From the IMG/VR virus record IMGVR_UViG_2737471861_000014, positions 1 through 32,305 of that record: a stretch of DNA of 32,305 nucleotides; one strand, written 5' to 3'. This stretch comes from a virus. Its lineage: Duplodnaviria > Heunggongvirae > Uroviricota > Caudoviricetes. The translations under genes and the position numbers were made by a program. The notes under the pieces are model-generated. The model saw only the letters and a list, made by a program, of their open reading frames with translations. It did no database searches and was not told the origin of the DNA. This document shows, piece after piece, positions 1 to 21,388 of the stretch; position 1 is the stretch's first letter; each line of letters opens with the position of its first letter.

Positions 1-141
1 ATATTACGTGGGTAGGATCACGCAGGGGTCGGCCCATTTGAGCTTCAGATAGGAACGTTTGAATTCCTTTCACAAAATACATCACATACTGAACGTGAAC
101 ATTCCCACTTTGATCTTAAGGCCAAAAAGTATGCAGGACTA

Positions 142-1860: not shown

Positions 1861-3610
1861 TATGACAGTGGCAAATTATAATTCTCTTGTCCAGAAAACT
1901 TTCTGCGAAAATGCAATTCGTTCCGTTGTCATGATTGATGACGATTTTCTGACGTATTCTGAATCAATCAGGGCGTTGAATAACGAAGTTGATTTAGACT
2001 ACAACAAAATTGACTCATCTAAACGAGCCGCTACTCTTGAGAGCTTTTTTCAATCTAAAAATATGATTTGTGATGTTGACAATGGTTCTGTTAATTTCGA
2101 TGTGGATCGGATTAGGAAATCAGATCTTATTATTGTAGATTATCATCTTGATAATAATGCACCTGATAAAACACTTAAACTATTACAAGATTTGAAAGAC
2201 TCCGATCATTTAAATATGATTGTAATATATACTAGAGAGAATTTAGAAACGGTTTGGATGCAGATATCATCGACTCTCAAAGGTGCTCTGGATATCAACA
2301 GCTTGATCATTGACTACGATAATGAAGATGTCCAAAGTTATTGGGAAGACGTTGTATTACCGAACTTAAATGATAATGGTAATAAAGCTCTCACAAGAGA
2401 TGAAACAATAGCCTATATTAAAGACAGTAAGCCTTGTAGAAGAATTAAAAGATTAATACATGATGATGCTGTGTTGGAGGATCAAAAGGATAAAAACTTC
2501 ATTGCAAAAATGATTGCAGAATATGCTGTGTCTAGAAATGCAATTATTTCTAGCAACACATCTGGCAATGTCATTCGGGGTGATGAAAGCGGAGTAAAAT
2601 GGATTCAATGTGGTAATATCTTTGTCTCCCTATTTCATAAGGTTCAAGATGATCATGAAAACGATGGAGATAGGATTTGGCAAACTCTCAATGATTCTCT
2701 CATTGAATGGAAACCATCTTATTATCAGTTAATAAAATCTGAAATTCAGAATGCAATCGAAGCTGAGGCTTTATCTTTTGTAAATCATTTGGCTAACGAT
2801 CATTACGGTCAAGCTGCGTGGTTAAATGAGATATTAAAATCAGACTCGCCTGATATTAGATGTAGAAATATTGACTTTGTATTTGGTAATTTATCAGAAG
2901 AGCTTTATCAAAGACTTAAAAATAATAATACGCTGGATGAATTTATCAAAAGTGTTTTTGATAGCTATTCAAATGAATACGCTAACAGCGGAGTTGCTGC
3001 ATTGCTCCAATATTGCTCTTCAAAAATGGATCTGCCATCAAATAATGATACTTATCACGAAATGTATCATGCTTTAAATATGAATTTGTCTTCAAAGAAT
3101 TTTGAAGATGGTCATATTTCTACTGGCACTATTTTCTTTGATACAGAGTCGAACAAATGGTATTTATGTGTATCTGCGGCATGTGATTTGGTTCCTACTC
3201 AGGGTAACGACCCTCACCATGTAAGATTAAGTCCGCACAGGCTCATTAAAGTTCTGGAGCTTTTTAACGCCAGTCAGAGTAAAGCATTGCCATTTGCTGA
3301 ACATTCGAAATATATATATGTAATGCATAAAAATCAAAGAAAATATCTCTCTATTTTCGAAGGGGATAAAACGCTTCCTGTTGTTGATTATATGGTGGTG
3401 TTGAATCATGGAACAACAGTTGATGGCGAAGAAAAAAATATTATTTCTGCCGTGTTTTTAAGTAATATGGATGGCAACGTGCAAAATGTTCCTGTCCGAC
3501 TCAAACTTAAATCTCAACTGAGAACTGGTTATGCAGAAAGATATCAGGCTATAGCGTCTCAGTATAGCTCAAGGATTGGTGTGGATTATGTATCAATGAT
3601 GCTACCATAA
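1844..3610 (+). CDS. Receiver (REC)-like domain protein with a ~440-aa C-terminal domain of unknown function
   Basis: ORF of 588 aa whose start overlaps the stop of the upstream gene by 17 nt, suggesting translational coupling. REC-like motifs: acidic pair in RSVVMIDDD, putative phospho-acceptor Asp in DLIIVDYHLD, Thr in MIVIYTRE, then a Lys. No HTH or other known output domain recognised in the C-terminal part. Confidence 0.5.
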   Translation: MEWSSNMTVANYNSLVQKTFCENAIRSVVMIDDDFLTYSESIRALNNEVDLDYNKIDSSKRAATLESFFQSKNMICDVDNGSVNFDVDRIRKSDLIIVDYHLDNNAPDKTLKLLQDLKDSDHLNMIVIYTRENLETVWMQISSTLKGALDINSLIIDYDNEDVQSYWEDVVLPNLNDNGNKALTRDETIAYIKDSKPCRRIKRLIHDDAVLEDQKDKNFIAKMIAEYAVSRNAIISSNTSGNVIRGDESGVKWIQCGNIFVSLFHKVQDDHENDGDRIWQTLNDSLIEWKPSYYQLIKSEIQNAIEAEALSFVNHLANDHYGQAAWLNEILKSDSPDIRCRNIDFVFGNLSEELYQRLKNNNTLDEFIKSVFDSYSNEYANSGVAALLQYCSSKMDLPSNNDTYHEMYHALNMNLSSKNFEDGHISTGTIFFDTESNKWYLCVSAACDLVPTQGNDPHHVRLSPHRLIKVLELFNASQSKALPFAEHSKYIYVMHKNQRKYLSIFEGDKTLPVVDYMVVLNHGTTVDGEEKNIISAVFLSNMDGNVQNVPVRLKLKSQLRTGYAERYQAIASQYSSRIGVDYVSMMLP

Positions 3611-3623
3611 TTATTATATTTTA

Positions 3624-3660
3624 GGCGTGGTGATTTTTTTTCGCCATGCCTATTTTATAT
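3624..3660 (+). terminator. Putative intrinsic terminator between convergent genes
   Basis: Hairpin GGCGTGGTGA / T-rich loop / TCGCCATGCC (with G-U wobbles) followed by TATTTTATAT, immediately after the stop at 3610. Confidence 0.45.
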
Positions 3661-3681
3661 TTATCATCACAATGATGTTGT

Positions 3682-4098
3682 TTATTTTTGTTTAAGTCTT
3701 CTAAGCTTCATGCATTCTAATGAGAATAATAATAGAGTTGTGCTGTATATAAAGCCAGAGTTAGTTAATAACTTTAAATTTAATGCTTCAGGATTTTCAC
3801 TGAGAAAGTGAAAGGCATAAACTAAGTATACAGCTAAAGTAGCCGTTCCAATTGTTGGTCCAATATCGCCTTGATCATGAGGTTCAAGGTTTACATTGAA
3901 CTTGAAGATTAGCCATTCAAATCCCCAAGTAAAAAAAACAACTAATATCATGGCTGCGAATAATTTCGCGATCTTATCTGCTGATGGATTCATCAGAACA
4001 GATTGTTTCTGAAAAAATTCACAAAGTGAGAGTCCGAAAAAAATAAAAAAAAGTGGTCTGGAACTAAATTTTTCAAAAACTTTGAATAGGGTTTCCAT
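3682..4098 (-). CDS. Small hydrophobic (multi-pass membrane) protein, hypothetical
   Basis: ORF of 138 aa with several hydrophobic stretches (LFFIFFGLSL, AAMILVVFFTWGFEWLIF, GTATLAVYLVYAFHFL). AT-rich; lies between the cassette and the integrase. Confidence 0.45.
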   Translation of the reverse strand: METLFKVFEKFSSRPLFFIFFGLSLCEFFQKQSVLMNPSADKIAKLFAAMILVVFFTWGFEWLIFKFNVNLEPHDQGDIGPTIGTATLAVYLVYAFHFLSENPEALNLKLLTNSGFIYSTTLLLFSLECMKLRRLKQK

Positions 4099-4136
4099 TT
4101 TCTTTACCTTCAGGATTATATTAGCTATTCTGATAC

Positions 4137-5408
4137 TTAGGCTACCAGAGCATTTGATCTTTGAGCTTGAACGTAATCACTCCACCATTGCATCAAACTC
4201 TGTCGCTCTATCAGATATTCTGCACGATTGTATGCTGCGATAATTTCATCTTTTTTCGAGTGGGCAAGCGCTGCCTCAAGAACTTCAGCTCTGAATTTAC
4301 CAGACTCCTCTGCCGCTGTTCGTGCAATAGAACGCATACCGTGAGCTACAAGCTCGCCTCCGAACCCCATTCGGATGATAGCTGCGTTGGCTGTTTGTTC
4401 ATGCATATGATTAAGAGGCGCTTTTATGCTGGGGAAAACCCATTCTCTATGCCCACTTATTGATTTCATTAATTCAAGGATGCGCAAAGCTTCTTTACTC
4501 AAAGGAACTTTGTGAAGCTTTTTCATTTTCATGAAATCAGCAGGAATGTTCCAAATGCTGTTGGTTGTATCAATATCAGACCACCTTGCGCGAACGGCTT
4601 CACCCGGACGAACCCATGTCAACAATTGCCATTCAATTAGCATACGTGTTTCCAACCGGATTGACGCATTCGTCAAAGATTCCATAAACCTTGGCAATTC
4701 GCTTGGGGGAAGGGCAGGCATATTTTGCTTTTTTGGTTTACTGAATCTTTGACCAAGGTTGTCAGCCGGGTTGAACTCAATAAGTTCTTCAGTAGCTGCC
4801 CACCGGAAGATTTCATTCAGACGTGAAATGATACGGCGTAGAGTTTCCAATACGCCTCGTTGCTCAATAGGATCAAGGTGTTGTTTTAAGAGCTTAGGTC
4901 GGATCTCATTGATAGGGACATTACCCAGACCGGGAAAGACATTTCTCTCTAAGCTGCGCCAGATGTCTGCTGCATGGTCTTGTGAGATACCTGATGTCTT
5001 TACCTTCTCATCTAACCATTTCCGCGCTACGGCTTGGAGAGTGTGCTCAGTAGCACTCTTTAATGCCTTCGCCTTATCGTTGTTATGGATTTGGGGATCA
5101 ACACCATTTGCCAGAAAGGAGAGATATTCATCACGTAAGGCTCTGGCTCTTGCAAGGGTAAGGTGAGGATATGTCCCAAGGCTCATTTTGGTTCTTTTCT
5201 TGCTCACTGGTACTGCATACCTGAAATACCAATTTTTCTTGCCTCCTTTCGCCAAAGGAGCGATTCGTAGAATCAGACCATCACCGTCAAACAAGTTGAT
5301 TTCTTTATCGGCTGGCTTGGTGCTTTTGATTTCAGTGTCAGTGAGCTTCTTAGCGATTTTTGCCATTTTGGGACCCTCGGTTTTTGGACCCTTCTTAGTG
5401 GGTCCCAT
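4137..5408 (-). CDS. int: Tyrosine recombinase, P4/CP4-57 (IntA-like) integrase family
   Basis: ORF of 423 aa. The N-terminal LTDTEIK..KP motif and overall sequence resemble P4-type integrases. The true start may be the internal Met (MAKIAKKLTDTEIK, about nt 5366). Adjacent to the ssrA 3'-end repeat. Confidence 0.9.
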   Translation of the reverse strand: MGPTKKGPKTEGPKMAKIAKKLTDTEIKSTKPADKEINLFDGDGLILRIAPLAKGGKKNWYFRYAVPVSKKRTKMSLGTYPHLTLARARALRDEYLSFLANGVDPQIHNNDKAKALKSATEHTLQAVARKWLDEKVKTSGISQDHAADIWRSLERNVFPGLGNVPINEIRPKLLKQHLDPIEQRGVLETLRRIISRLNEIFRWAATEELIEFNPADNLGQRFSKPKKQNMPALPPSELPRFMESLTNASIRLETRMLIEWQLLTWVRPGEAVRARWSDIDTTNSIWNIPADFMKMKKLHKVPLSKEALRILELMKSISGHREWVFPSIKAPLNHMHEQTANAAIIRMGFGGELVAHGMRSIARTAAEESGKFRAEVLEAALAHSKKDEIIAAYNRAEYLIERQSLMQWWSDYVQAQRSNALVA

Positions 5409-5531
5409 TCAGGGTGCCATAACTCGTAGTTCTCAGCAATTCTCACTGGACGACAATAGACGTAAAAAAGCCCGCAGAGCTTGTGCTGTGTGGGCTTAGT
5501 AGACTTCATTGAACTTCAAACAACTAAAAAG

Positions 5532-5576
5532 TGGTGGAGCTGGCGGGAGTTGAACCCGCGTCCGAAATTCCTACAT
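5532..5576 (-). repeat. ssrA: 45-bp fragment identical to the 3' end of tmRNA gene ssrA (T-arm, acceptor stem and CCA): attachment-site repeat
   Basis: Reverse complement reads ATGTAGGAATTTCGGACGCGGGTTCAACTCCCGCCAGCTCCACCA, matching the E. coli ssrA 3' terminus as I recall it. Flanking sequence on the 5' side (5577 onward) is AT-rich and unrelated to tmRNA, so this is not a complete gene. Confidence 0.8.
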
Positions 5577-5768
5577 ACCATTTTTATTATAGTAAAAACA
5601 GTAGATTATGTTTGAAAACAATGTGTTAGTGTTATTTTGTATTTGCTCGTCTTACGCGTTTTTAATGCTCTGCCGCCAAAGTGCCGCCATTACATCAAGC
5701 ATCTAGAATAAAATTAGTTAATAAATTATAATTAATATGCTAATTGTTCTTGCATTCATAAGTGGGAC

Positions 5769-7505
5769 GTGATGAAAGAAAAAAAATTCGTTAGTGAGCT
5801 TTTCCTTGAAAATGGGCAGTTTATTTTAGTCGGTTTGACAGGTCGAACTGGTTCTGGTTGCACAACAACAGCTAATATTCTTGAAAACGAAAAAACAGTC
5901 TTCCCTGATGTAAGTAAATTACAGGGGTTTTACAAGGGATTGGATGTCCATCGTTATAATATAGTTAAAAAATTCGCAGAAAATCACTGGGAAAATTTTT
6001 ACTCAATTAAGGTGAGTGACCTAATCTCAGCGTATCTTCTGATGTTAACAGTTGAGGAAGCTTCTGAATTCATTCTATCATCTAATAAATTTATCAGTAA
6101 AGAGCATTTAGATATTGTATTAACTTTTGGTGTATTCTCAGATAATCTCATTTTGACAAGATTTAAAAATGTAATTGAGAATTTGCTTGATCATAATAGT
6201 GAATTGAAGTTTGATGAAAAAACGATTAATAAATTTATATCAATTTTGAAGTTAGTTAGAAAATTTACTAAAGAATTCAAAGCTGAACTAAATGAGATAA
6301 ACTCAAATTTATATGTTTCAGCCTATCAGTTAGCAGGTAAGTCAATTAGACGTCGTGGGCGTATTGAAGTCGATTTTGAAGATAAAGAGTTTATGCCTAA
6401 ATCTGTTTTTCATTTGCCGGAAACTATTAATAGGGTTATTAAATTAATAAGAAAAAGCAAAAGAGATAACGCATTAATTGTCATAGATGCTATTAGAAAT
6501 CCATATGAGGCAAAATTTTTTAAGGATAGATATTCTGCATTTCATTTAATGTCAATAAATGCCCCAGATGAACATCGAACAAACTATTTGCGGAAACTAC
6601 ATAAGTTTTCAGAAAAGCAGATAGAGGAAATAGATTCTGTAGAGTCAGGTAAAGGTGATAACTCTTACAAACATCTCACCAATCCAAATGTAACTAAATG
6701 TATTGAACTATCAGATATACACATTTTTAACCCAAAAAATGAATTTGATAATGACAATATTTTAAAAGCACAATTAGCGTGGTACATCGCACTGATGAAG
6801 CATCCTGGTCTGATAACACCTACTGCAATGGAAAGGGTTATGCAAGTTGCGTATACGGTAAAATTAAACTCTGGCTGTATATCTAGACAGGTGGGAGCTG
6901 TAGTAACTGATGGTGATAATTCAATAAAATCAGTTGGTTGGAATGATGTTGCCAACGGTCAGATTCCTTGCTCTATGAGATCTCTAGATGGCCTAATGAA
7001 CGATTTTGATGAAAAAACGTACAGTCATTATGAGAGAAATAATAGTTCTTTCAGAATTAAAGCTAATGAGAAACTCTTAAATTTTAGGGCGATAGATAAA
7101 ACTGGTGATATTTATAGAGGCAGGAACTTATCTTATTGTTTTAAAGATATACATAATGATCTTGATAAAGAGAAAAAAGGTAATCAAGTTCATACACGTG
7201 CATTACATGCTGAGGAAAACGCATTTTTACAACTTGCAAAATATGGTGGTATTGGCGTTCTGGGGGGGAAGTTGTATACAACTGCCAGTCCCTGTGAGTT
7301 GTGTGCGAAAAAAGCTTATCAGTTAGGTATATCTGAAATTGTATTTATTGATCCCTACCCAGGTATAGCTCAAGACCATATTATTAATATAGGTAGTAAG
7401 CCACCAAAGTTAATACAATTTAGAGGCGCAATTGGGAAGTCATATCACCGACTTTATGAGCAAATTATCCCGATAAAAGATGAGTTAGAATATCTCCTTG
7501 AGTAG
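5769..7505 (+). CDS. P-loop kinase-like N-terminal domain fused to a zinc-dependent cytidine/dCMP-deaminase-fold C-terminal domain; dCTP-deaminase-type antiphage defence protein (candidate)
   Basis: ORF of 578 aa. Walker-A-like GLTGRTGSGCTT near the N-terminus. C-terminal deaminase zinc motifs HAEENA and SPCELCAKK. AT-rich; located between the att repeat and the prophage integrase. Start is GTG 5769 or ATG 5772. Confidence 0.65.
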   Translation: MMKEKKFVSELFLENGQFILVGLTGRTGSGCTTTANILENEKTVFPDVSKLQGFYKGLDVHRYNIVKKFAENHWENFYSIKVSDLISAYLLMLTVEEASEFILSSNKFISKEHLDIVLTFGVFSDNLILTRFKNVIENLLDHNSELKFDEKTINKFISILKLVRKFTKEFKAELNEINSNLYVSAYQLAGKSIRRRGRIEVDFEDKEFMPKSVFHLPETINRVIKLIRKSKRDNALIVIDAIRNPYEAKFFKDRYSAFHLMSINAPDEHRTNYLRKLHKFSEKQIEEIDSVESGKGDNSYKHLTNPNVTKCIELSDIHIFNPKNEFDNDNILKAQLAWYIALMKHPGLITPTAMERVMQVAYTVKLNSGCISRQVGAVVTDGDNSIKSVGWNDVANGQIPCSMRSLDGLMNDFDEKTYSHYERNNSSFRIKANEKLLNFRAIDKTGDIYRGRNLSYCFKDIHNDLDKEKKGNQVHTRALHAEENAFLQLAKYGGIGVLGGKLYTTASPCELCAKKAYQLGISEIVFIDPYPGIAQDHIINIGSKPPKLIQFRGAIGKSYHRLYEQIIPIKDELEYLLE

Positions 7506-7536
7506 AAATATTATACTCATCCTTCCTGAGGTAAGC

Positions 7537-7570
7537 TTCAAGATGATCAATAAATATTGATCATCTTGAA
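7537..7570. repeat. Perfect 16-bp inverted repeat with 2-nt spacer
   Basis: TTCAAGATGATCAATA-AA-TATTGATCATCTTGAA, 32 bp after the deaminase stop. No clear U-run follows on either strand, so it may be a protein-binding site rather than a terminator. Confidence 0.6.
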
Positions 7571-7885
7571 AGTTAATTGCAGAGTCAAACTAGTAGTCAG
7601 ACTGAAGCTTCGATAAAAAATGTTTTTGTTTTTTTCATTTTCTAATGACTGTTTTTTATTGGTTTCTTTTTAATGTTGCAATGCTATGCTTTTCTACTAT
7701 TTTTGAATGTGGCATCTTTGATGTTTTTATACAACAAAGATGAGGGCTTATAGGTTTTTTTGTGATGTAAAAATTATCTTATTCTATAAATAAAACCTAA
7801 ACTCAGTCTGAAGAGTTAAATGAGAATGGATAACCTGCTGAATATTATATTTGTAAATAGTTTGAGTTTGTTTTCATAAGTTACT

Positions 7886-8902
7886 CTATCTTAAGTTGCA
7901 TAAAGGGTTTTTAGTTACCGCATCTTCAAGGTGATCGGGCGAAAAGTGGGCGTAAATCATCGTCATTTTTATATCGGCATGGCCCAGAATATCGCGCAGC
8001 ACCAGTATGTTTCCGCCATTCATCATAAAATGGCTGGCGAATGTATGACGTAGCACGTGAGTGCATTGGCCCTCTGGCAGCTCGATGCCAGCTCGCTTTA
8101 CTGCTCGTTCAAAGGCTTTTCTGCACGGGGTGAATAGCTTCCCTCTGTTCTTGGGGAGTTCGTCATACAGATCTTGAGATATCGGCACGGTGCGGTTTTT
8201 CTTACCCTTCGTCTTGGTATAAGTGATGCGGTATTTAGATAACTGATGGCCCTGCAGGTTTTCAGCTTCACTCCAGCGTGCGCCGGTGGCCAGGCATATT
8301 TTTGCAATCAAAAGCAGACTGGGGTTTTGAGAATCAGCGCAGGCATCTAGCAGACGTTTAATTTCTTCCGAGGTCAGGAACGCCAGTTCCCCCTCAGCGA
8401 TTTTAAATGTTGGCAGCCCGGCGAGAGGATTTGGTGCTGACCAGTGGCCTAGTTTTTTCAATGTGCCGAAAACCGATGATAGGTTACGTTGCTCAAGATT
8501 CACCGTGCGTGGTTTTACTGGCGACATTAGTGTGCCGTCTTCGTTACGAACGTCACCTTTTAACCGTGCTTCGCGGTATTTCGTAAAGTCACCGGCTGTC
8601 AGTTCTGAGGCGATGGGGTCGCCTAGACCATTACAGATAATTCTAAGTTTCGCCATGAGGCGCTTGGGGTCTGCGAGTGTCTGACCATACAGGGAATACC
8701 AAAGCTCAATTAATTCTGATAGGCGTCGCCGATCATCCTTTTCACCCAACCACGGTTTTTTATTCACTTCTTCCATTGTGAAGCTTTCAAAAGCAATGGC
8801 TTCGCCTTTCGTAGCAAATTGCTTACGCACGCGCTTACCATTGCGTCCATTGGGATAGCACTCACACAACCATTTTCCGTTCGGCTGTTTTCTGATGGTC
8901 AT
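7886..8902 (-). CDS. int: Prophage integrase, P2/186 tyrosine recombinase family
   Basis: ORF of 338 aa, the same length class as P2/186 Int. The C-terminal region contains HVLRHTFASHF and LGHADIKMTMIYAH, typical of the catalytic R/H/Y region. Sits immediately downstream of the CI-like gene. Confidence 0.9.
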   Translation of the reverse strand: MTIRKQPNGKWLCECYPNGRNGKRVRKQFATKGEAIAFESFTMEEVNKKPWLGEKDDRRRLSELIELWYSLYGQTLADPKRLMAKLRIICNGLGDPIASELTAGDFTKYREARLKGDVRNEDGTLMSPVKPRTVNLEQRNLSSVFGTLKKLGHWSAPNPLAGLPTFKIAEGELAFLTSEEIKRLLDACADSQNPSLLLIAKICLATGARWSEAENLQGHQLSKYRITYTKTKGKKNRTVPISQDLYDELPKNRGKLFTPCRKAFERAVKRAGIELPEGQCTHVLRHTFASHFMMNGGNILVLRDILGHADIKMTMIYAHFSPDHLEDAVTKNPLCNLR

Positions 8903-8903
8903 A

Positions 8904-9536
8904 TCAAAGGCTCTTAATGATTTTCAGTGCGCGGCCTACTACCTCAATGTCATCTAGGCCACACTCAAACGATGAATCATCCTGATGCACTACTAATTTG
9001 TTTCCCGGAAGTCGAGTCAATTTAACAATGCTTTTTATCCCGTCAATATCGACTAACCACATACCATTTACTGGTGGTGTTTGGTTGCGATCTATTAAAT
9101 AAGAATCACCAGAAGTAGTCACCAGCAGTAGGTTGCTTGAGTCTGAGGGGAGTATGCTGCTATCAATGATTGCTTTTCCAGCATCGACCAATAAACCACC
9201 GTTGAGAGTCGCCTTGTCAATTTCAGGAGATACTAGTTCAGAAAGAGGTACAACCTTGCTGGAGTTCACGGAATTGATATTTTTTTTAGGTTCAATGTTT
9301 GGACCTGGCTCCCCCTGTCCGGTGGTTAGCCACAGTAAAGAAACTCCTGTTTCCAAGGCGCACTGAATCACCCACTCTGCAGGAAAACTATCTCTTAAGT
9401 ATCTGTTTGCCATGGTGCTTTTTGATGCGCCTAAGTGATCGCAAAGTTGCTGTCTGGACTTGAAATCATAGGCTGCCATTAGTCTATGGATAGCCTCTCT
9501 TCCCCCTGTATTCTCTCCAACCTTTACCTGTATCAT
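8904..9536 (-). CDS. cI: CI-type immunity repressor (186-like)
   Basis: ORF of 210 aa directly upstream of int and divergent from the apl/cII operon. N-terminal HTH-like region. Position and size fit the 186 CI family. Confidence 0.75.
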   Translation of the reverse strand: MIQVKVGENTGGREAIHRLMAAYDFKSRQQLCDHLGASKSTMANRYLRDSFPAEWVIQCALETGVSLLWLTTGQGEPGPNIEPKKNINSVNSSKVVPLSELVSPEIDKATLNGGLLVDAGKAIIDSSILPSDSSNLLLVTTSGDSYLIDRNQTPPVNGMWLVDIDGIKSIVKLTRLPGNKLVVHQDDSSFECGLDDIEVVGRALKIIKSL

Positions 9537-11481: not shown

Positions 11482-12335
11482 GCACCATCCTGAAATGGGC
11501 GGGAAATAAAACCGCCATTATGTCCGAACTGAAAAAACACCTTCCTGCTGGCCCGCGACTGGTTGAACCTTTCGCGGGTTCCTGTGCTGTGATGATGGAG
11601 ACGGATTACCCCAGCTATCTTGTTGCGGATATTAATCCTGATTTAATCAACCTCTATAAAAAGGTTGCTGCTGATTGTGAGGCATTTATATCTCGTGCCA
11701 GAGCTTTATTTGAGGAAGCAAACAGGGAGGTGGCTTATTACAACATAAGGCAGGAGTTTAATTACTCCACTGAAATTACTGATTTCATGAAAGCGGTATA
11801 TTTTCTGTATCTCAATCGTCATGGTTACCGTGGGTTATGTCGCTATAACAAGAGCGGGTATTTCAACATTCCCTACGGTAATTATAAAAATCCGTATTTC
11901 CCTGAAAAAGAAATTCGCGCATTTGCAGAGAAAGCCCAGCGGGCAACGTTTATCTGCGCCAGCTTTGATGAAACGCTGGCGATGTTGAAGGCGGGGGATG
12001 TGGTGTATTGCGATCCGCCGTATGACGGCACGTTTTCCGGTTATCACACTGACGGCTTCACTGAAGATGACCAGTATCACCTGGCATCCGTTCTTGAACA
12101 TCGGTCATCAGAAGGACATCCGGTCATTGTTTCTAACAGTGACACATCCCTGATCCGTTCGCTGTATCGCAATTTTACTCACCACTACATCAAGGCAAAA
12201 CGCAGCATCGGCGTAGCAGCTGGTGAGAGTAAATCTGCAACAGAAATCATCGCTGTTTCTGGGGCGCGCTGCTGGGTGGGATTTGATCCTTCGCGTGGCG
12301 TGGATAGTTCTGCCGTGTACGGAGTGCGTGCATGA
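11478..12335 (+). CDS. dam: DNA N6-adenine methyltransferase (Dam-like, D12 class)
   Basis: N-terminus [11 protein letters not shown] and catalytic DPPY motif ([10 protein letters not shown]). ATG at 11478 with GGAGG RBS, overlapping the upstream stop. Confidence 0.85.
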
Positions 12336-14746
12336 GCCATGCTGATATGAACAACTGCAGCGGCTTTAACGAGGCCGCCGCAGCATTCTCATGGGACAGC
12401 CCGAAAAAGGCTATTAACCCTTATCTGGACCCGGCAGAAGTTGCGCCGGTTTCTGCGCTTTCAAACCTGATCACTCTGTACGCTGCCGATAACGAGCAGG
12501 AACAACTGCGCCGCGAGGCACTGAGTGATCAGGTCTGGGAGCGTTATTTCTTTAATGAATCCCGTGATCCTGTCCAGCGCGAAATGGAGCAGGATAAGCT
12601 CATTAGCCGGGCAAAGCTGGCGCATGAGCAGCAGCGTTTTAATCCGGATATGGTCATTCTGGCGGACGTCAACGCCCAGCCTTCCCATATCAGCAAGCCG
12701 CTGATGCAACGTATTGAATACTTCAGCAGCCTGGGCAGGCCAAAGGCTTATTCCCGCTATTTGCGTGAGACGATTAAGCCATGTCTGGAACGACTGGAGC
12801 ATGTACGCGAGAGTCAGCTATCCACTTCTTTTCGCTTTATGGCAAGCCATGAAGGGCTGGACGGCCTGCTGATCCTGCCTGAAATGAGTCAGGATCATGT
12901 GAAACGCCTGTCCACCCTGGTAGCTGCGCATATGAGCATGTGCCTTGATGCAGCTTGTGGCGATTTGTATGCCACCGATGACGTTAAGCCAGAAGAAATC
13001 CGCAAGACATGGGAAAAGGTGGCGGCGGAAACCCTGCGTCTGGATGTCATCCCACCTGCGTTTGAGCAACTCCGTCGGAAAAGAAACCGCCGTAAACCCG
13101 TGCCCTATGAACTCATACCGGGTTCGCTGGCGCGTATGTTGTGCGGCGACTGGTGGTATCGGAAATTATGGAAGATGCGTTGCGAATGGCGGGAAGAGCA
13201 GTTGCGCGCTGTTTGCCTGGTCAGCAAAAAAGCATCTCCTTATGTCAGCTATGAAGCCGTGATGCATAAACGTGAGCAGCGCCGTAAGTCGCTGGAGTTT
13301 TTCCGTTCTCATGAACTGGTGAACGAAGACGGCGACACGCTGGACATGGAGGATGTGGTAAACGCCAGCAGCAGCAACCCTGTGCATCGCCGCAATGAGA
13401 TGATGGCCTGTGTTAAAGGTCTGGAGCTTATCGCGGAAATGCGCGGTGACTGCGCCGTTTTCTACACTATCACCTGTCCGTCGCGTTTCCATTCCACGCT
13501 AAATAACGGCAGACCAAACCCGACCTGGACAAACGCGACGGTAAGACAAAGCAGCGATTATCTGGTCGGCATGTTTGCTGCATTTCGTAAGGCGATGCAC
13601 AAAGCCGGGTTGCGCTGGTATGGCGTGCGGGTGGCTGAGCCGCATCATGACGGCACAGTTCACTGGCACCTGTTGTGTTTCATGCGCAAAAAAGACCGCC
13701 GTGCCATCACTGCATTACTGCGTAAGTTTGCCACCCGTGAAGACCGCGAGGAGCTGGGCAATAACACTGGGCCGCGCTTTAAGTCTGAGTTGATTAACCC
13801 GCGCAAAGGAACGCCGACAAGCTACATCGCGAAATATATCAGTAAGAACATTGACGGTCGTGGTCTGGCTGGCGAGATCAGCAAGGAAACGGGTAAATCT
13901 CTGCGTGATAACGCTGAATACGTGAATGCCTGGGCGTCTCTGCATCGTGTTCAGCAATTCCGCTTCTTTGGTATTCCGGGGCGTCAGGCTTACCGTGAAC
14001 TTCGCTTGCTGGCTGGTCAGGCGGCAAGGCAACAGGGTGACAAAAAAGTAGGTGCGCCGGTACTGGATAACCCGCGTCTTGATGCCATTCTGGCTGCTGC
14101 TGATGCTGGTTGTTTTGCCACCTACATCATGAAGCAGGGCGGCGTACTGGTTCCCCGTAAATATCACCTCATCAGAACCGCTTATGAAATCAACGAAGAG
14201 CCGACCGCCTATGGCGATCACGGCATTCGTATTTATGGCATCTGGTCACCCATTGCAGAGGGCAAGATCTGCACTCATGCAGTGAAGTGGAAAATGGTTC
14301 GTAAAGCCGTTGACGTTCAGGAGGCGGCAGCCGACCAGGGCGCTTGCGCCCCTTGGACTCGTGGCAATAACTGTCCCCTTGCTGAAAATTTGAACCAACA
14401 AGGGAAAGACAAATCAGCTGATGGGGATACCAGAACGGATATCACCCGCATGGATGACAAGGAGTTGCACGATTACCTGCACAGTATGAGCAAAAAAGAG
14501 CGCCGGGAACTGGCAGCAAAATTACGCATGGTTAAACCGAAACGGCGTAAAGACTACAAACAGCGAATTACAGAGTATCAGCGTCAGCAGCTCGTCTATG
14601 AACTGAAGTCCAGAGGATTTGATGGCAGCGAGAAAGAGGTCAATTTGCTCCTTCGCGGCGGCAGTATTCCGTCAGGAGCAGGCCTGCGTATCTTCTATCG
14701 GCACCAGCGTTTGCAGGAAGATGATAAGTGGCGAAACCTGTATTAA
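12332..14746 (+). CDS. A: Replication initiation protein A (P2 gpA-family rolling-circle initiator)
   Basis: ORF of 804 aa with [13 protein letters not shown] and [12 protein letters not shown] motifs characteristic of the P2 A family. Positioned after the early genes. Confidence 0.85.
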
Positions 14747-14898: not shown

Positions 14899-15087
14899 AT
14901 GCAGGACTATTTTTTGGAGTCTTTGAAGCTCCAGCGCATTGATTTTTTTCTTAAGCTTGTAGCGGCTAGTGAGTGTAGTGATGAAGAGAAGGGGCTGGCC
15001 CTGCAGTGGGTTTCTGAACTGACAGATGAACTCATGGCAAAAATCAGAACCCACGAATACAACCGCTCAATGGATGTCATCAGCTGA
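14899..15087 (+). CDS. Hypothetical small protein, first gene of a putative SOS-inducible operon
   Basis: ORF of 62 aa. ATG preceded by AGGAGG. Its stop overlaps the RBS of the next gene. Confidence 0.4.
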   Translation: MQDYFLESLKLQRIDFFLKLVAASECSDEEKGLALQWVSELTDELMAKIRTHEYNRSMDVIS

Positions 15088-15097
15088 GGTGACTTTT

Positions 15098-15331
15098 ATG
15101 CGCATTGAAATAATGATCGATAAAGAGCAGAAGATTAGCCAGTCTACCCTGAACGCCCTTGAATCCGAGCTTTACCGCAATCTGCGCCCCCTATATCCAA
15201 AAACGGTAATTCGCATCCGCAAAGGTAGCTCTAACGGTGTGGAACTGACCGGACTGCAACTGGACGAAGAAAGGAAGCAAGTGATGAAAATTATGCAGAA
15301 AGTGTGGGAAGACGACAGCTGGCTGCATTAA
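15098..15331 (+). CDS. dinI: DinI-family protein (Tum/DinI-like, SOS-associated)
   Basis: 77 aa from the ATG at 15098 (GAGGTGA RBS). MRIEI... N-terminus and C-terminal VWEDDSWL resemble E. coli DinI (MRIEV ... WESADDWF). Confidence 0.7.
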   Translation: MRIEIMIDKEQKISQSTLNALESELYRNLRPLYPKTVIRIRKGSSNGVELTGLQLDEERKQVMKIMQKVWEDDSWLH

Positions 15332-15493: not shown

Positions 15494-15535
15494 TAGATCA
15501 TGCAGGTGCATGAAAACCACTACATAAAGCGGGCA

Positions 15536-15554
15536 GGCGTGGCGGGGATACGAG
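15536..15554. other. cos-like sequence (candidate cohesive-end site)
   Basis: GGCGTGGCGGGGATACGAG resembles the 19-nt cohesive ends of P2 (GGCGAGGCGGGGAAAGCAC) and 186 (GGCGTGGCGGGGAAAGCAT) as I recall them: the first 13 nt are identical to 186, then it diverges. Confidence 0.4.
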
Positions 15555-15644
15555 CGCGCGCTTGATGTCATATTTCACTACTAAGCATAATACGCCTCCA
15601 TTCTTGCAAAGGAACAATGATTTACTTATCTTGTCCATAGGATT

Positions 15645-16742
15645 TTGCCGAGAAAGATCAGGTTAAGGGGATGTATTGTGGCTGAGAACGGACCGATAGA
15701 AGAATTAGCAAAGATAGTATCATCGAAGATTTTTGAGCGCTTTAAATGGAGCATATCAGGGCCGTGTGATCAGGACTTTGGATGTATTGACGAAGAAAAT
15801 CATAAACCACTCGAAAAAAAGCAGGCTCATACACACCCTGTCGATGTGGTTTTTAGCTATAAAGACCCTTATTTAAATAAAACTATTTTATTGAATACTG
15901 ACCTAAAAAGTTACTCTAAGGGTTCTATTAATCCTGACATGATAGAAAAAGCGCTGACATCCCTAGGGTATACAATTTCCTGTGCTCAATATAGTCCGGA
16001 GTGGAGAGAGAAATATAATATATGCGTTGGGGATAGTGAGGTTAGAGGGTTATTGTTTGTTTATAATCATGATAACGATTTTGAGCATAACTTTTATGAT
16101 TTCTTCGATCCTCCCAAACCTGCAGGAAGAAAAAGAAAGCCGAAGGCAGTTAAATTAGATAATATAAAAGTGTCTGATGGGCAACAAATACATATAATTG
16201 AGCCTAAGTCGATTAGCTATATGTTATCTATAATCGCAGATATGAATGAATTAATCAGAGATAATCAATTCCCGAGAGATGAGTATGGTTTTTATTACCC
16301 TCAACTTACATATCATAAGGTAATTGTCACCGATGATTATTTACCTGCAACGATAGAGTCTTTGACTGCTCCATTTTTAATTATTAAACATGATGCAGTT
16401 TACTCGTATGATCGCGAGCTACAAAGAGAAGTTGAAGTTTATCCTGCAGGGTATGTTGTATATTATAATCGTCCGGGCTCCACAGATATGGAGTTTTATT
16501 ATCTCTTTGATCTTTTAACTAACTACCAGATTCTGAATGGAAAAAACAACATAAGAATACGTATCGCGACAAAAGATCGGAATGATTCAATAAGATCGCA
16601 TTTTAAACGGGCACTTCAGAAGTATGCTTTTGATTGGAATTATGATGATAGTGCAAAGGAAAAACTACTTTCTATGGATATTTATTTAGTTCCTACAGTT
16701 AAAGAGTTTTATAGTACTGAATCAACATCTTGGGATTATTGA
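15645..16742 (+). CDS. Hypothetical protein, gene 1 of an AT-rich three-gene cargo cassette
   Basis: ORF of 365 aa. Start is TTG 15645 or, more likely, GTG 15678 (AAGGGG RBS 7 nt upstream). Possible PD-(D/E)xK-like spacing (HPVDVVF ... NTDLK) near the N-terminus, a weak motif-level guess. No recognisable phage structural or replication homology. Confidence 0.55.
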   Translation: MPRKIRLRGCIVAENGPIEELAKIVSSKIFERFKWSISGPCDQDFGCIDEENHKPLEKKQAHTHPVDVVFSYKDPYLNKTILLNTDLKSYSKGSINPDMIEKALTSLGYTISCAQYSPEWREKYNICVGDSEVRGLLFVYNHDNDFEHNFYDFFDPPKPAGRKRKPKAVKLDNIKVSDGQQIHIIEPKSISYMLSIIADMNELIRDNQFPRDEYGFYYPQLTYHKVIVTDDYLPATIESLTAPFLIIKHDAVYSYDRELQREVEVYPAGYVVYYNRPGSTDMEFYYLFDLLTNYQILNGKNNIRIRIATKDRNDSIRSHFKRALQKYAFDWNYDDSAKEKLLSMDIYLVPTVKEFYSTESTSWDY

Positions 16743-16743
16743 T

Positions 16744-17868
16744 ATGAGCAATATTTATAGTGTGACGGATAAGGTTTTATGTGATGCTCTTAACCAGTCA
16801 CAAGTAACTCAAAATGAGATGAGAGAGCTTTATCTTTCAAGAGGTATAATTATTTCAAAAAACACCGATAGAAAATTATTAGCTAAAAACTTCTCAAAGT
16901 TCACTCATGATTACTATGATCATCAGAAAATTGCAGAGATATTAGGAAGTGAGCCTCGGAGGGAGCGTTCTACTTCAAGATTAGTATCTAATATGCCTGA
17001 AAAAACAATTTTATTAAAAGCGGCGGATTCGCTAAAAAAAGAGCTAACAGACCAAAAAGACCTCTGCCATATAGTTGCTGATAAAAGTGGCATGATAAAT
17101 ATTCATATAACTTATATGTCAACAAATTTTTCAAAAAGTGATTTCAAACAAGTCGTTAAAAAGCAAGCTGTCATAGAGGTAGAGCCAACAGAAGCTGGTT
17201 ATGTGATTCGCCGTCCAGATAATGAGCAAACTGAGGTTTATGAGAATCAGTTACTTGCTATCGTTGAAAGATTATCAAAGGAAAGAGCGATTGAGGAAGG
17301 AAAACCAATTTCGGACGCTACTCTCGATATCCAAGAAATAAGTCTAGAAAACATTGATTCCCCTCAGTCCAGAACTGATTTCTTTACGAAATTAATAAAT
17401 GGGCTTGAAGGTTATGAACTCGATGATGTAACAGATGCTTATGTTTATCACCCAAAACCAGAAGAGATTGAAGAGGAAGACGGCGAAACAGATTTAGGAG
17501 TACATGTTAGTAAGGCATCGTTGAAAGGGGAAGGGGTGCTCAAATCTGAAGAAATCAACTCACTTTATGAGCGTGGCTTTTATATATGTAAAATTAAATG
17601 GCGAGTTAAAGAGAAAGGTGCGGATCCAAATATTTTTGAGTTTGAAGCGCAATTTAACGACGCTCAAAATTTTAAGGGGTTTTCATATATAGCTAAAGGT
17701 ATTAAAAAATACAAAGGGGGTGGCGAGTATAATAAGTCAACAGTCCAGTTGAAAGATAGTCAGAAGTTATTTTTTAGTCGTATGATTGAAAAGGCAGCCC
17801 GTTCCATTATAATTGAACTAAATAAACAGGCTCAGGGGAAGAAAGATGGAAAGTCTGATCAGAGTTAA
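16744..17868 (+). CDS. Hypothetical protein, gene 2 of the three-gene cargo cassette
   Basis: ORF of 374 aa starting 1 nt after the gene 1 stop. Contains an acidic stretch (EEIEEEDGETD). No recognisable domain. Confidence 0.55.
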   Translation: MSNIYSVTDKVLCDALNQSQVTQNEMRELYLSRGIIISKNTDRKLLAKNFSKFTHDYYDHQKIAEILGSEPRRERSTSRLVSNMPEKTILLKAADSLKKELTDQKDLCHIVADKSGMINIHITYMSTNFSKSDFKQVVKKQAVIEVEPTEAGYVIRRPDNEQTEVYENQLLAIVERLSKERAIEEGKPISDATLDIQEISLENIDSPQSRTDFFTKLINGLEGYELDDVTDAYVYHPKPEEIEEEDGETDLGVHVSKASLKGEGVLKSEEINSLYERGFYICKIKWRVKEKGADPNIFEFEAQFNDAQNFKGFSYIAKGIKKYKGGGEYNKSTVQLKDSQKLFFSRMIEKAARSIIIELNKQAQGKKDGKSDQS

Positions 17869-18547
17869 ATGGAATAGATTGAAGTCTAATCTTACATTAA
17901 GTGAGATTGCTTTTTATATAAAGAGTAACAAATACTCTGAAGAACTTGGCTATGGTTATTCTGACTTTGAAGTTTCATCTGACGTACTATCAGCTACGTA
18001 TACTGAAGCTAAGTTGAATAAACAGACTTCAGTTGATCCTTTGGGTAACGAAAATGAACAAGAGTTCATTACTTATGAGTCAATTCAGTTCTCTATATCT
18101 AAACTCATAGGTAGGTTATATTTATTATCAGTTTACAATCCACCAAAATCAATAAAGGCTTTGACAGAGCGACTTAGTGCGGATTCAGGTTATAAAATAG
18201 GGTTTGGCATCGTTGATATTAAACTGTCTGAGTATTTGGATTCGCTGCATAAAAAATATGATTTGGAACTTGTTAGTATCAAGAAGGTTAAGGTTAGTAA
18301 TTTGATAGTTAATGATAACTCTAAGGCAACCGTAGAGGTTACATCTAAGAAAAATGCATTTGATGATGTGAAGGATATTATTGGGGATAAAGCATATTCT
18401 CTTGATAAGGTCAGGGCGGCAGGATATGTTCTAGGACATCGTTGTGAATTTGAGATATCGAAGAATGGTTCTGTCTGTGCTAACGAGGGTATGGTTAAAT
18501 ATTTAACTGAGACAATAGTTTCTCATATTCTTGAAAGGGAAATTTAA
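17846..18547 (+). CDS. Hypothetical protein, gene 3 of the three-gene cargo cassette
   Basis: ORF of 233 aa whose start overlaps the end of gene 2 by 23 nt, preceded by a GGGGAAGAAAG RBS. No recognisable domain. Confidence 0.55.
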   Translation: MESLIRVKWNRLKSNLTLSEIAFYIKSNKYSEELGYGYSDFEVSSDVLSATYTEAKLNKQTSVDPLGNENEQEFITYESIQFSISKLIGRLYLLSVYNPPKSIKALTERLSADSGYKIGFGIVDIKLSEYLDSLHKKYDLELVSIKKVKVSNLIVNDNSKATVEVTSKKNAFDDVKDIIGDKAYSLDKVRAAGYVLGHRCEFEISKNGSVCANEGMVKYLTETIVSHILEREI

Positions 18548-18552
18548 TAGTT

Positions 18553-18585
18553 GGCGGTATTCATACCGCCGCCTCTATTTTCTCT
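18553..18585 (+). terminator. Putative terminator between the cassette and the convergent portal gene
   Basis: GGCGGTAT-TC-ATACCGCC hairpin followed by GCCTCTATTTTCTCTG. Confidence 0.45.
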
Positions 18586-18590
18586 GAAAC

Positions 18591-19625
18591 TCAAAGAGTT
18601 AGTTCATATTTTTCAAAACGCATAATTTTCTCCCCTAACCATTCATTGAGCCCCTCGAGTTGTTTTTGTAGAGGCATCAGTTCGTTACGGACAAAGACGC
18701 AACTGGCCTTCTCCACATCCCCAAACCCGCCAACATTACTTGGCATAATCCCCATCATCTGTGGTGGCACGCGGTGCGCAGCCATCATGTCATCACGGCT
18801 CACGTTCTTGATATTCAGAAACTCATCCTTCGCTGCGACTTCTGACAACGGGATAATCTGAAGTCCGTCCTTTTTGCCGTTAGGCGAGTACATAAACAGA
18901 TTGCGGAAGTTGCCAGGGCCTTTGGCGCTTTTCATCGCGTTGCGGAGGTTGTTCACATCCTCCTGGTTCTGCGCGGCATCGGTCATATACATGATGAAGC
19001 CTGCATGGCTGCCGTTGATGTAATACTTACGGCGGAACAGCGTGGCGGACTCGTTGAGCAGGGCTGACGGAATGGCAGAAAGATAACCGGGCAGGCCGTA
19101 GATCTCCTGATTAATATCCGGTTCCATCAGATGAAAAATGCTGCCTTTCGTGAACTGATACGGCTGGGTTGTCATACCGTATTGCACAAACCAGTAGGTA
19201 TCCAGGTCTAATCCGCGTCGGGTGTATTTTGCCAGCGCAGGTTCAAGGGCGATCACTTCACCGAAGCGGTTCGTGCGTTTCTCCAGATAGGCATTGCCAA
19301 ATACCAGATAGTCCTGCACAAAACGCGAAAAAGCCTGCTGGCTGAGCAGAGGATGAGGGATATAGGTACTGGTCAGAATGTTACACTTTACTGCAATCGG
19401 GGAACTGTGATGCACGGCAGCGCGGAAGGTGCGCGCCAGTCCGTCAAAGCTGACGGGAGGCTCATACCAGCGGTCCATCTGTACGCATTCCACATAGTCC
19501 AGCAGTTCACGGCGGTCCAGAACAGGAACGGGATCGCCGAAGCTGAATGCTTCGGCTGTAGTTTGACTTTTAAGCTGGATCTGTTTCGTCGCCGCAGCTC
19601 GGTTCTTCTTACTCTTTCCCATCAA
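18591..19625 (-). CDS. Q: Portal protein (P2 gpQ family)
   Basis: ORF of 344 aa (P2 Q is the same length), adjacent and co-oriented with the terminase ATPase gene. Confidence 0.85.
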   Translation of the reverse strand: MMGKSKKNRAAATKQIQLKSQTTAEAFSFGDPVPVLDRRELLDYVECVQMDRWYEPPVSFDGLARTFRAAVHHSSPIAVKCNILTSTYIPHPLLSQQAFSRFVQDYLVFGNAYLEKRTNRFGEVIALEPALAKYTRRGLDLDTYWFVQYGMTTQPYQFTKGSIFHLMEPDINQEIYGLPGYLSAIPSALLNESATLFRRKYYINGSHAGFIMYMTDAAQNQEDVNNLRNAMKSAKGPGNFRNLFMYSPNGKKDGLQIIPLSEVAAKDEFLNIKNVSRDDMMAAHRVPPQMMGIMPSNVGGFGDVEKASCVFVRNELMPLQKQLEGLNEWLGEKIMRFEKYELTL

Positions 19626-21388
19626 AAAATCTCCACAATATTGCTGGTATTGGCGGATTCGCCCTGCAGCGGTTCGTTAAACAGTGCGTGCATCGTTGCC
19701 CATGCCAGATCGGCGTGGCTGGCTTCTTCGCTGCGGCTGGCTTCATAGGTCGGGCGGTTGCCACTGGCGGTGGTGGCGCGACGGATTGCCATAAAGGACT
19801 GCGCTATGTCGGTGTGTCCGGCGTCAAACTCCAGACGGCGGTGGCTGATAATGTCGTAGGCCTTGAGTACCAGAGCGTTTTTAACGTTGGGGTTGTAGAC
19901 AAACTCCCGGACGGCAGGAAAGAACGCTTTCACGTTCTCATAAACCCCGTGACCGACGCCTGTCGAGTCGATGCCGATATAGGTCACGTTGTACTGCTCG
20001 GTCAGTTTTTTGATTGCATCAGCCTGGGCGCGGAAGTCCATCCCGCGCCACTGGTGACGCTCTAGAATGCGAAACTTACCGCCTGGCACGGCTGGCGGTG
20101 CCACCACCACGCATCCGGCGCTGTCGCCGTTCTGCGTACCTTTTGCCGGGTCATAACCGATCCACACCTCGCGCCAGCCAAACGGGCGCAGGGCCAGTGC
20201 ATGAAAATCGGTCCAGACTTCCCAACTGTCCACCATGCACGCCTGCAGTTCGCTGAGCGGGAACACGGACGCGAGATCGTCCACGAACTCGCACATCAGC
20301 AGGTTCTGATATTCGTCCGGGCTGTACTCCATGCGTAGCTGGTCGAGGTCGAACAGGTTACAGCCGCCGCGCACCGCATCTTCCACGGTGACTATCTGGC
20401 GGTATTGCCCGTCTGCGCACAGCAGGCCGGGGGCCAGATTGTTGTGGGACAGGTCGATGTCCACCTTATCGGCTTTGTTGCGCCCACGGTTAAACAGCGC
20501 ACCGGACCAGAACGGATAAGCACTGTGTGTCAGGCTGGATGGTGTGGAAAAATAGGTTTGTCGCCATTTTTTGTGAATAGCCATACCGGAAGCCACTTTG
20601 CGCAGCTCCTGGAATTTCGGTATCCAGAAGTATTCATCCAGATACAGGTTGCCGTGGTAACTCTGGGCCGTGCGGGCATTGGTGCCGAGGAAGTAAAGCG
20701 TGGCCCCGTTGGGAAGCACCATCGGATCGCCTTTCAGCTCCGCCTCCACTTCTTTGGCGAAGTCGATGATGTACTGTTTAAAGACGTGGGCCTGTGCCTT
20801 ACTGGCGGAAAGGAAAATCTGGTTACGTCCGGTAAGCAGGGCGTCAATCAGGGCTTCACGGGCAAAGTAAAAGGTCGCGCCGATCTGGCGTGACTTCAGC
20901 AGGTTGCGGATGCGGTTGGTTTTTCCGGCTTCCCACCAGTGGCGCTGGTAGTTGAACATGGAGGAATGGAAAATTTCTTCCAGCTTCTCAATCTGTTCAT
21001 CGGTGAAAACGTTCTTTTCCGGCTGCCGGCGTGGGCCTTTGTTGCGGTTGGCGACGTTAGGGTTCAAGTCGGCTTCGTTGCCGCCATTGTTAAACTTGCC
21101 GATCCGCGCGTGGCGTTCCGACTGGCGCGCCAGCAGGTCAATCTCTTTGAAATCTTTCCCTTCTTTGTGCTCCTTCATAATGAGCTGGCAGTAGCGTGCG
21201 GCGGTGGTGAGCTGCATCTGATCCAGCGGCCCATAGTCACCCCACTTGTCGCGTTTTTTCCAGCTGTGAACGGTTGCAACTTTCTCGCCCAGCATTTCAG
21301 CAATGCGGGCTACGCGGTATCCCTGAAAGTACAGCAGCATGGCCTGCCGACGGGGATCGAGATCTGCGGGTGTCAGTGTGGTGTTCAT
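19622..21388 (-). CDS. P: Terminase large (ATPase) subunit (P2 gpP family)
   Basis: ORF of 588 aa overlapping the Q start by 4 nt. Size and position match P2 P. Confidence 0.85.
   Translation of the reverse strand: MNTTLTPADLDPRRQAMLLYFQGYRVARIAEMLGEKVATVHSWKKRDKWGDYGPLDQMQLTTAARYCQLIMKEHKEGKDFKEIDLLARQSERHARIGKFNNGGNEADLNPNVANRNKGPRRQPEKNVFTDEQIEKLEEIFHSSMFNYQRHWWEAGKTNRIRNLLKSRQIGATFYFAREALIDALLTGRNQIFLSASKAQAHVFKQYIIDFAKEVEAELKGDPMVLPNGATLYFLGTNARTAQSYHGNLYLDEYFWIPKFQELRKVASGMAIHKKWRQTYFSTPSSLTHSAYPFWSGALFNRGRNKADKVDIDLSHNNLAPGLLCADGQYRQIVTVEDAVRGGCNLFDLDQLRMEYSPDEYQNLLMCEFVDDLASVFPLSELQACMVDSWEVWTDFHALALRPFGWREVWIGYDPAKGTQNGDSAGCVVVAPPAVPGGKFRILERHQWRGMDFRAQADAIKKLTEQYNVTYIGIDSTGVGHGVYENVKAFFPAVREFVYNPNVKNALVLKAYDIISHRRLEFDAGHTDIAQSFMAIRRATTASGNRPTYEASRSEEASHADLAWATMHALFNEPLQGESANTSNIVEIF

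Follow-up and report, generated by a model that had tools for sequence, protein, structure and literature searches.

The window analyzed here is the whole 32,305-nucleotide (nt) stretch of a Caudoviricetes virus (positions 1 to 32,305 of IMG/VR record IMGVR_UViG_2737471861_000014), within which we mainly focused on an AT-rich cassette of three genes (positions 15645-18547), whose products are referred to below as Hp1, Hp2 and Hp3. Judged by sequence homology, this cassette is almost certainly a divergent member of the 3HP defence system, which a P2-like prophage carries as cargo in its cos-proximal hotspot. The system is listed in both standard detectors (as 3HP in PADLOC and as Rst_3HP in DefenseFinder, i.e., "hp + hp + hp"), and 3HP, rather than a novel system, is the correct annotation label for the cassette.

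All three proteins matched the corresponding PADLOC models: Hp1 at 7e-64 (profile positions 4-304 of 333), Hp2 at 2e-47 (positions 4-343 of 359) and Hp3 at 1.5e-8 (positions 3-200 of 227). The three adjacent genes are co-oriented and follow the order Hp1-Hp2-Hp3, as required for 3HP. Moreover, BLASTP comparisons showed that each protein is collinear over its full length with the respective protein of the experimentally validated clone pFR109 (39% identity and 7e-69 for Hp1, 32% and 7e-49 for Hp2, 20% and 9e-12 for Hp3). This clone, whose sequence and three proteins are given in Table S2A of the original study, is derived from Escherichia coli E1114 and protects against P1, one of the eight phages tested (Rousset et al., 2022; PMC9122126). 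A first-pass annotation, prepared from the DNA sequence alone, had found no match to described defence families and had suggested that the cassette may represent an uncharacterized system; both statements fail in the light of these matches. No paper describing the mechanism or the domain assignment of 3HP turned up in the searchable literature, and PDB sequence searches with single sequences or profiles detected no solved relative for any of the three proteins.

Three plus-strand open reading frames (ORFs) were confirmed, at positions 15645-16742 (with a start revisable to 15678), 16744-17868 and 17846-18547. For the first of them, TTG at 15645 is the alternative start, giving a protein of 365 amino acids (aa), while GTG at 15678 stands 7 bases past a Shine-Dalgarno sequence (AAGGGGA) and gives 354 aa. 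The GTG codon is the more likely start, because the homologues are approximately 354 aa long, the family profiles begin at this point and the Shine-Dalgarno sequence is suitably placed. Of the lengths given in the first-pass annotation (365, 374 and 233 aa), the second and third are therefore retained and the first is probably to be replaced by 354 aa. The encoded proteins are (i) Hp1 (15678-16742; 354 aa), a GAPS4a-type PD-(D/E)xK nuclease and the predicted effector; (ii) Hp2 (16744-17868; 374 aa), in which a predicted four-helix domain at the N terminus precedes an RdgC/CENP-N-like body, the putative subunit that encircles DNA and on which Hp1 would dock; and (iii) Hp3 (17846-18547; 233 aa), a predicted RdgC/Iml3/CENP-L-like protein lacking the N-terminal helical domain, which may be either the clamp partner of Hp2 or a regulator.

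The tight packing and low G+C content noticed in the first-pass annotation were confirmed. The stop codon of gene 1 is separated from the ATG of gene 2 by 1 nt (TGAtATG), and the last 23 nt of gene 2 are shared with gene 3. The G+C content of the consecutive genes is 0.349, 0.356 and 0.336, with values of 0.28-0.29 at third codon positions (GC3), whereas the flanking prophage genes are GC-richer (0.53 for gpA, 0.51 for the portal gene and 0.57 for the terminase gene; GC3 0.58-0.70). As had also been claimed, the cassette has a terminator of its own: an intrinsic-terminator-like hairpin with a T tract (18552-18581, plus strand) lies between Hp3 and the convergent portal gene, within the gap of only 43 bp that separates Hp3 from the portal stop codon. 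In a scan, the hairpin itself (18552-18571) was found to have a GC-rich stem of 8 pairs (5 of them G-C) and a loop of 4, followed by CCTCTATTTT. A possible sigma-70 promoter of the cassette (15562-15591, plus strand; TTGATG-18-CATAAT, 9 of 12 consensus matches) is a weak assignment, for which position is the sole argument; sigma-70-like sites in this region were not more numerous than in shuffled sequence in the consensus scan.

The surroundings of the cassette are those of a P2-like prophage, and the gene map upheld the earlier placement between the replication/SOS module and the portal gene. On the left, a DinI-like gene (15026-15331, plus strand) is followed by a cos-like site (15517-15560, strand not assigned), which forms the left edge of the cargo slot; on the right lies the portal gene (18591-19625, minus strand). 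The site was recognized as cos-like by reference to the P2/P4 cohesive end, GGCGAGGCGGGGAAAGCAC. Since it is placed upstream of the cassette, the cargo lies between cos and the portal gene. The same cos-like stretch (...AAGCGGGCAGGCGTGGCGGGGATACGAGCGCGCG) is present in nearly identical form in the validated pFR109 clone, which means that the two share one layout (DinI, cos, cassette, portal), and it is collinear with the cos regions of P2 and P4 shown in Table S2 of Rousset et al. (2022; PMC9122126).

The gpA-gpQ region of P2-like phages is a known hotspot, for which 1,650 arrangements of genes have been described (Rousset et al., 2022; PMC9122126). In other E. coli P2-like prophages, the very slot that holds the cassette was found to carry (i) another 3HP clade, (ii) a hypothetical protein together with a HIRAN protein, (iii) an AAA ATPase with an S8 peptidase, or (iv) a DUF262 protein. 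This exchange of cargo, which the first-pass annotation had expected from related prophages, supports its suggestion of a defence or exclusion function in an exchangeable P2 slot. Among 5426 complete E. coli genomes, 3 contained the exact cassette and approximately 1280 its flanks. A search of PHROGs returned families of unknown function only.

A copy of the cassette with 99.8% identity occurs in E. coli ET734 (16246-18467 of that record), where Hp1 and Hp2 are each split into two ORFs. These splits probably reflect an assembly error rather than decay, because many other genes of that record are flagged as frameshifted.

The distribution of the trio was determined by pattern scanning in a single genome of each species, which revealed 157 genomes with an Hp1 relative, of which 80 loci were kept. 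At each locus whose downstream DNA is long enough, the Hp1 relative is directly followed by Hp2 and then by a third ORF of approximately 225 aa. All 79 of these third ORFs (79/79) joined the validated Hp3 in a single hidden Markov model (HMM) family after one iteration, the validated Hp3 scoring 5.6e-52. Plasmid clades with 26-29% identity retain the same Hp1-Hp2-Hp3 trio, its genes abutting or overlapping. The three ORFs are, by these comparisons, real genes and not chance ORFs, because the homologues of each number in the tens to hundreds and the gene order is kept across about 80 loci; and since no locus with sufficient sequence departs from this order, with abutting or overlapping genes, Hp1, Hp2 and Hp3 presumably act as one functional unit.

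The trio is conserved across Proteobacteria, where its usual setting is a defence island and not a prophage. In only 2 of the 80 species-level loci were portal, terminase and gpA genes of the P2 type found nearby, so that conservation is independent of the prophage context; together with the homology to a named defence system, this argues against the undescribed system that had been put forward. The immediate neighbors of the loci include integrases (16 of 141), Gabija, PARIS AriA, AbiL, Septu PtuA, NERD and Mrr, and single loci adjoin AbiEii, a NACHT protein and a KAP NTPase. The trio is an old mobile defence-island unit that P2-like phages picked up.

The P2 hotspot also hosts non-defence cargo, e.g., partition systems and toxins (Rousset et al., 2022; PMC9122126), and this would suit a role of the cassette in maintenance, namely as a partition or segregation system, an accessory of cos or packaging, or an addiction module composed of a DNA clamp and a nuclease. 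The direct proximity of cos, the occurrence of the trio on plasmids and the fact that RdgC/CENP-type proteins (see below) serve chromosome biology elsewhere point in the same direction. Such a role is nevertheless highly improbable, given that the homologous cassette, cloned alone, protected measurably against P1, and that most loci lie outside prophages, beside known defence genes. A search of GenBank phage records at the DNA level yielded no match to the cassette, which also speaks against this role.

Hp1 is the component whose predicted activity is clearest. In alignments of 102 sequences and of 84 sequences from the loci, a conserved motif, H53-P54-x-D56 ... D75-L76-K77, was distinguished. 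In the latter alignment D75 and K77 are invariant, while conservation reaches at least 90% at D56, H53, C36, H42 and C102. The family PF26115 (PDDEXK_GAPS4) is assigned, in precomputed annotations, to every listed Hp1 homologue, including one that is 98% identical. The possible PD-(D/E)xK spacing in gene 1 that the first-pass annotation had pointed out is thus supported, both by the conserved D56, D75 and K77 and by PF26115. Our Pfam search gave no significant match for any of the three proteins; since the 98% identical homologue does carry PF26115, the Pfam copy used seems to predate that family. A profile search of 1.84 billion proteins gathered 500 clusters (50% identity) of the Hp1 family at E <= 0.001, and GAPS4a and fused GAPS4a-b proteins were absent from the 150 matches listed, all of which were Hp1 orthologues.

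GAPS4 is a non-selective DNase that is triggered by DNA breaks and acts abortively; its catalytic Asp (D59/D49) is essential for defence, and in the authors' model a ring is made up of a pair of GAPS4b subunits, with a helical globular domain as the docking place of GAPS4a (Mahata et al., bioRxiv 10.1101/2023.03.28.534373; 10.1101/2025.09.07.674715). The GAPS4a sequence for comparison was taken from an AlphaFold3 file that accompanies the GAPS4 preprint as supplementary material. An hhalign comparison aligned residues 12-234 of Hp1 with residues 14-229 of GAPS4a (202 columns). The alignment pairs the catalytic D59 of GAPS4a with D56 of Hp1, and C37, H43, H56 and C109 of GAPS4a with C36, H42, H53 and C102. 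Against the NCBIfam GapS4a model (NF047933), Hp1 scored 36.4 bits (E 3.3e-9), which does not reach the cut-off of 270, while true GAPS4a scores 295 bits. Because PF26115 is shared and the GapS4a score is below the cut-off, Hp1 is classified from its sequence as a GAPS4a-type PD-(D/E)xK nuclease that is a superfamily relative outside the GapS4a family proper. The Cys/His pattern C36, H42, H51/H53 and C102 (window positions 15783-15985), which flanks the catalytic HPxD and is common to GAPS4a, may constitute a structural metal site.

For Hp2 and Hp3, the evidence comes from predicted structures. The AlphaFold2 models of both are confident, with a predicted local distance difference test (pLDDT) value of 88.6 and a predicted template modeling (pTM) score of 0.79 for Hp2 (alignment depth of 96 sequences), and 88.3 and 0.78, respectively, for Hp3 (12 sequences). 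Both show a two-domain alpha+beta fold superposable on RdgC, which was the best structural match for the two proteins. In Foldseek searches with Hp2, Chl4 and CENP-N ranked first (E ~5e-4, probability ~1), with low global TM scores, and RdgC was not listed. Hp3 consists of the fold alone, while in Hp2 the fold is preceded by an additional domain of four helices (residues 7-67), which holds many of its best-conserved residues (D9, K10, D14, A15, L16, R33, L46, A47, H55 and D59). Proteins of the RdgC/CENP type form DNA-binding rings or heterodimeric horseshoes.

Since RdgC is the best structural match of both Hp2 and Hp3 and inhibits RecA functions via DNA binding, the cassette might interfere with recombination or replication: Hp2 and Hp3 would coat or encircle phage DNA and block RecA or phage recombinases, with no break sensor involved, and Hp1 would only trim or destroy the trapped DNA, the result being direct, non-abortive exclusion. 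P1 must recombine its terminal redundancy to circularize, a step that could be prevented in this way, and P1 is the only one of eight phages on which the validated 3HP acts. However, of the three components the nuclease is conserved best and has intact catalytic residues, so that cleavage looks central rather than accessory, and the nearest sequence relative, GAPS4, is a break-triggered DNase. We therefore regard interference of this kind as unlikely.

Three further readings were rejected. The identification of Hp3 as a type II restriction enzyme (PADLOC REase_II, 0.001; ThaI, E 1.2) was discarded, as the D-x-K candidate is unconserved and the fold is RdgC-like. A RexAB-like system was dismissed in view of the lack of a membrane partner in the cassette, and a restriction-modification system because no methyltransferase accompanies the cassette in other loci.

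The relationship of Hp2 with GAPS4b was examined by profile-profile comparison. The GAPS4b sequence (379 aa) was transcribed from the same preprint supplement file and its identity was confirmed by a score of 341 bits to NCBIfam GapS4b; two plasmid GAPS4 loci are two-gene systems as well, encoding proteins of 308 and 386 aa and of 308 and 385 aa. The resulting GAPS4b profile is thin, being built from the supplement sequence, the two plasmids and three viral contigs, which represent only two clades. In the local mode, Hp2 7-270 aligned with GAPS4b 9-282 with a score of 25.7, compared with 14.9 +/- 2.3 for column shuffles, ~22 for block shuffles, 15.2 for the reversed profile and 15.2-18.3 for unrelated ones. 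The global score was 23.2, with 3.0 +/- 1.4 for column shuffles, at most 20.1 for block shuffles, 3.7 for the reversed profile and at most 5.2 for unrelated ones. On this basis, the homology of Hp2 and GAPS4b, collinear but weak, is considered probable but unproven. By analogy with GAPS4, it would fit a role of the Hp2 N-terminal domain as the predicted docking site of Hp1.

These data allow a mechanism to be proposed, which we consider the most likely one and hold with moderate confidence: an RdgC-like clamp formed by Hp2 and Hp3 would sense DNA and license the Hp1 nuclease, as in GAPS4. In the first step, Hp2 and Hp3, through their predicted RdgC/CENP-N-L fold, would assemble into a ring or horseshoe clamp that binds DNA without sequence specificity, in the simplest form a Hp2-Hp3 heterodimer resembling Chl4-Iml3. 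The conserved N-terminal helical domain of Hp2 would hold Hp1. When the clamp meets DNA in an abnormal state brought about by infection (breaks or free ends, if GAPS4 is a guide), Hp1 would be licensed to cut. Phage DNA, and possibly also host DNA, would then be destroyed, and the outcome may be abortive infection.

Several observations weigh against this model. The cassette shares only 20-39% identity with the experimentally validated 3HP, and the latter acts on 1 of 8 phages, a range narrower than a generic DNA-break sensor suggests. GAPS4 needs just two genes, which leaves the role of a third gene unexplained. As regards the clamp, hhalign comparisons of Hp2 with Hp3, with shallow and with deep alignments, revealed no similarity beyond that of shuffles, and neither protein gave a Pfam RdgC match. 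As regards the link between Hp2 and GAPS4b, Hp2 gave no match at E <= 1 to the NCBIfam GapS4b model (NF047934, cut-off 300 bits), on which true GAPS4b proteins score 331-341 bits. In addition, the block shuffles trace the local hhalign score mostly to a single N-terminal block; as they retain most of that score, the firm part of the similarity is this block, (I/V)TxxELRxLxxxRG.

Conservation of the three proteins drops steeply along the operon. The median pairwise identity is 0.30 for Hp1, 0.26 for Hp2 and 0.20 for Hp3; positions that are at least 90% conserved number ~70, ~30 and 3, respectively; and word-based searches found 236, 140 and 11 homologues. Hp3 is thus the fastest evolving of the three, which suggests that it is either weakly constrained or engaged in an arms race. 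In another explanation, Hp3 would be the infection sensor, recognizing a specific phage factor or being its target, and a phage protein, not DNA, would trigger the release or activation of a Hp1-Hp2 nuclease complex. A comparable case would be PARIS, which is triggered by an anti-restriction protein. Besides its rapid evolution, the fact that GAPS4 functions without a third subunit implies that Hp3 adds something, and the narrow phage range of the validated 3HP fits a specific trigger. Yet Hp3 shares the predicted DNA-clamp fold with Hp2, suggesting a structural, DNA-binding role, and its fast evolution could merely mean weak constraint. A protein-sensing Hp3 therefore appears quite improbable to us, and the clamp-licensed nuclease is retained as the working model.

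The remaining genes of the prophage recognized in the window include those encoding the integrase (7886-8902), CI (8904-9536), gpA (12332-14746) and the terminase (19622-21388, minus strand). A 62-aa ORF (14899-15087, plus strand; phrog_698, function unknown) runs across the start annotated for the DinI-like gene. RefSeq places the DinI start later, giving 77 aa in comparison with the 101-aa ORF of the window, and because of this the latter is probably too long. To the left of the integrase, the window (1-8000) contains an integrase-bearing island, whereas a near-identical prophage of E. coli ET734 (1-8500 of that record) is bordered there by different DNA (a ypjA autotransporter and an HNH protein), which indicates that the neighborhood of the prophage is itself variable.

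Other genes with a known or possible part in genetic conflicts were identified in the same window. The gene at positions 5769-7505 (plus strand) encodes a protein of 578 aa that combines a P-loop (GLTGRTGSGCTT) with the zinc motif of cytidine/dCMP deaminases, the latter at the C terminus. It matches PADLOC dCTPase (dCTP deaminase defence; 1.3e-145) and Pfam dCMP_cyt_deam_1, and by these matches it is a second, known defence gene, placed just outside the prophage integrase. Further to the left, an overlapping pair of AT-rich genes (142-1860 and 1844-3610, plus strand) encodes proteins of 572 aa, with a C-terminal HATPase_c domain, and 588 aa, with an N-terminal Response_reg_2 domain (PF19192). 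Neither of them matched PADLOC. The pair adjoins a P4-type integrase gene (4137-5408, minus strand) and the dCTP deaminase gene, and on account of this location it may represent an undescribed conflict system.

Among known systems, the closest to the cassette is the 3HP of pFR109, which has the three genes and their order in common with it, full-length homology of all three proteins and the same location in a P2-like prophage, with cos/DinI on one side and the portal gene on the other. The two differ in sequence (only 39, 32 and 20% identity) and slightly in size, the proteins of the cassette being longer (354, 374 and 233 aa, compared with 333, 359 and 227 aa). GAPS4, the break-triggered DNase, is likely to be a suitable working analogue of the cassette. 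Hp1 and GAPS4a share PF26115, the positions of the catalytic Asp and Lys, and the Cys/His pattern, although the motif is HPxD...DxK in Hp1 and HGxD...SxK in GAPS4a. Hp2 is like GAPS4b in its size, its place after the nuclease gene, its N-terminal motif and the weak collinear alignment. However, GAPS4 consists of two genes (an a2b2 complex), whereas the cassette and all its relatives have three.

The remaining comparisons concern the predicted clamp. Hp2 and Hp3 are only 11-13% identical to E. coli RdgC (PDB 2OWL), with no Pfam RdgC match, and RdgC is a stand-alone homodimer without a nuclease partner, while the cassette encodes two different, paralogue-like proteins, one of which (Hp2) has the N-terminal domain in addition. 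CENP-N/CENP-L (Chl4/Iml3 of yeast) are eukaryotic proteins of unrelated function, with no nuclease and no detectable sequence similarity to Hp2 or Hp3. RexA of the lambda RexAB exclusion system is a much weaker structural match than RdgC, and its partner is the membrane protein RexB, in place of which the cassette has a nuclease. We tentatively propose, at somewhat less than even odds, that 3HP and GAPS4 may form one wider class of defence systems, in which an RdgC-like clamp carries a PD-(D/E)xK nuclease; the clamp of 3HP would be a heterodimer of the diverged RdgC-fold proteins Hp2 and Hp3, a bacterial counterpart of CENP-N/CENP-L, with the fast-evolving Hp3 tuning which DNA state or phage factor acts as the trigger. 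If true, this would be the first heteromeric RdgC-type clamp in immunity and would provide a mechanism for a system orphaned since 2022. While 3HP itself was already known, what is new here is a testable model and the link of 3HP to GAPS4 and to the RdgC fold; these assignments also suggest that this fold, known from RdgC, RexA and CENP-L/N, is a recurrent DNA sensor in conflict systems.

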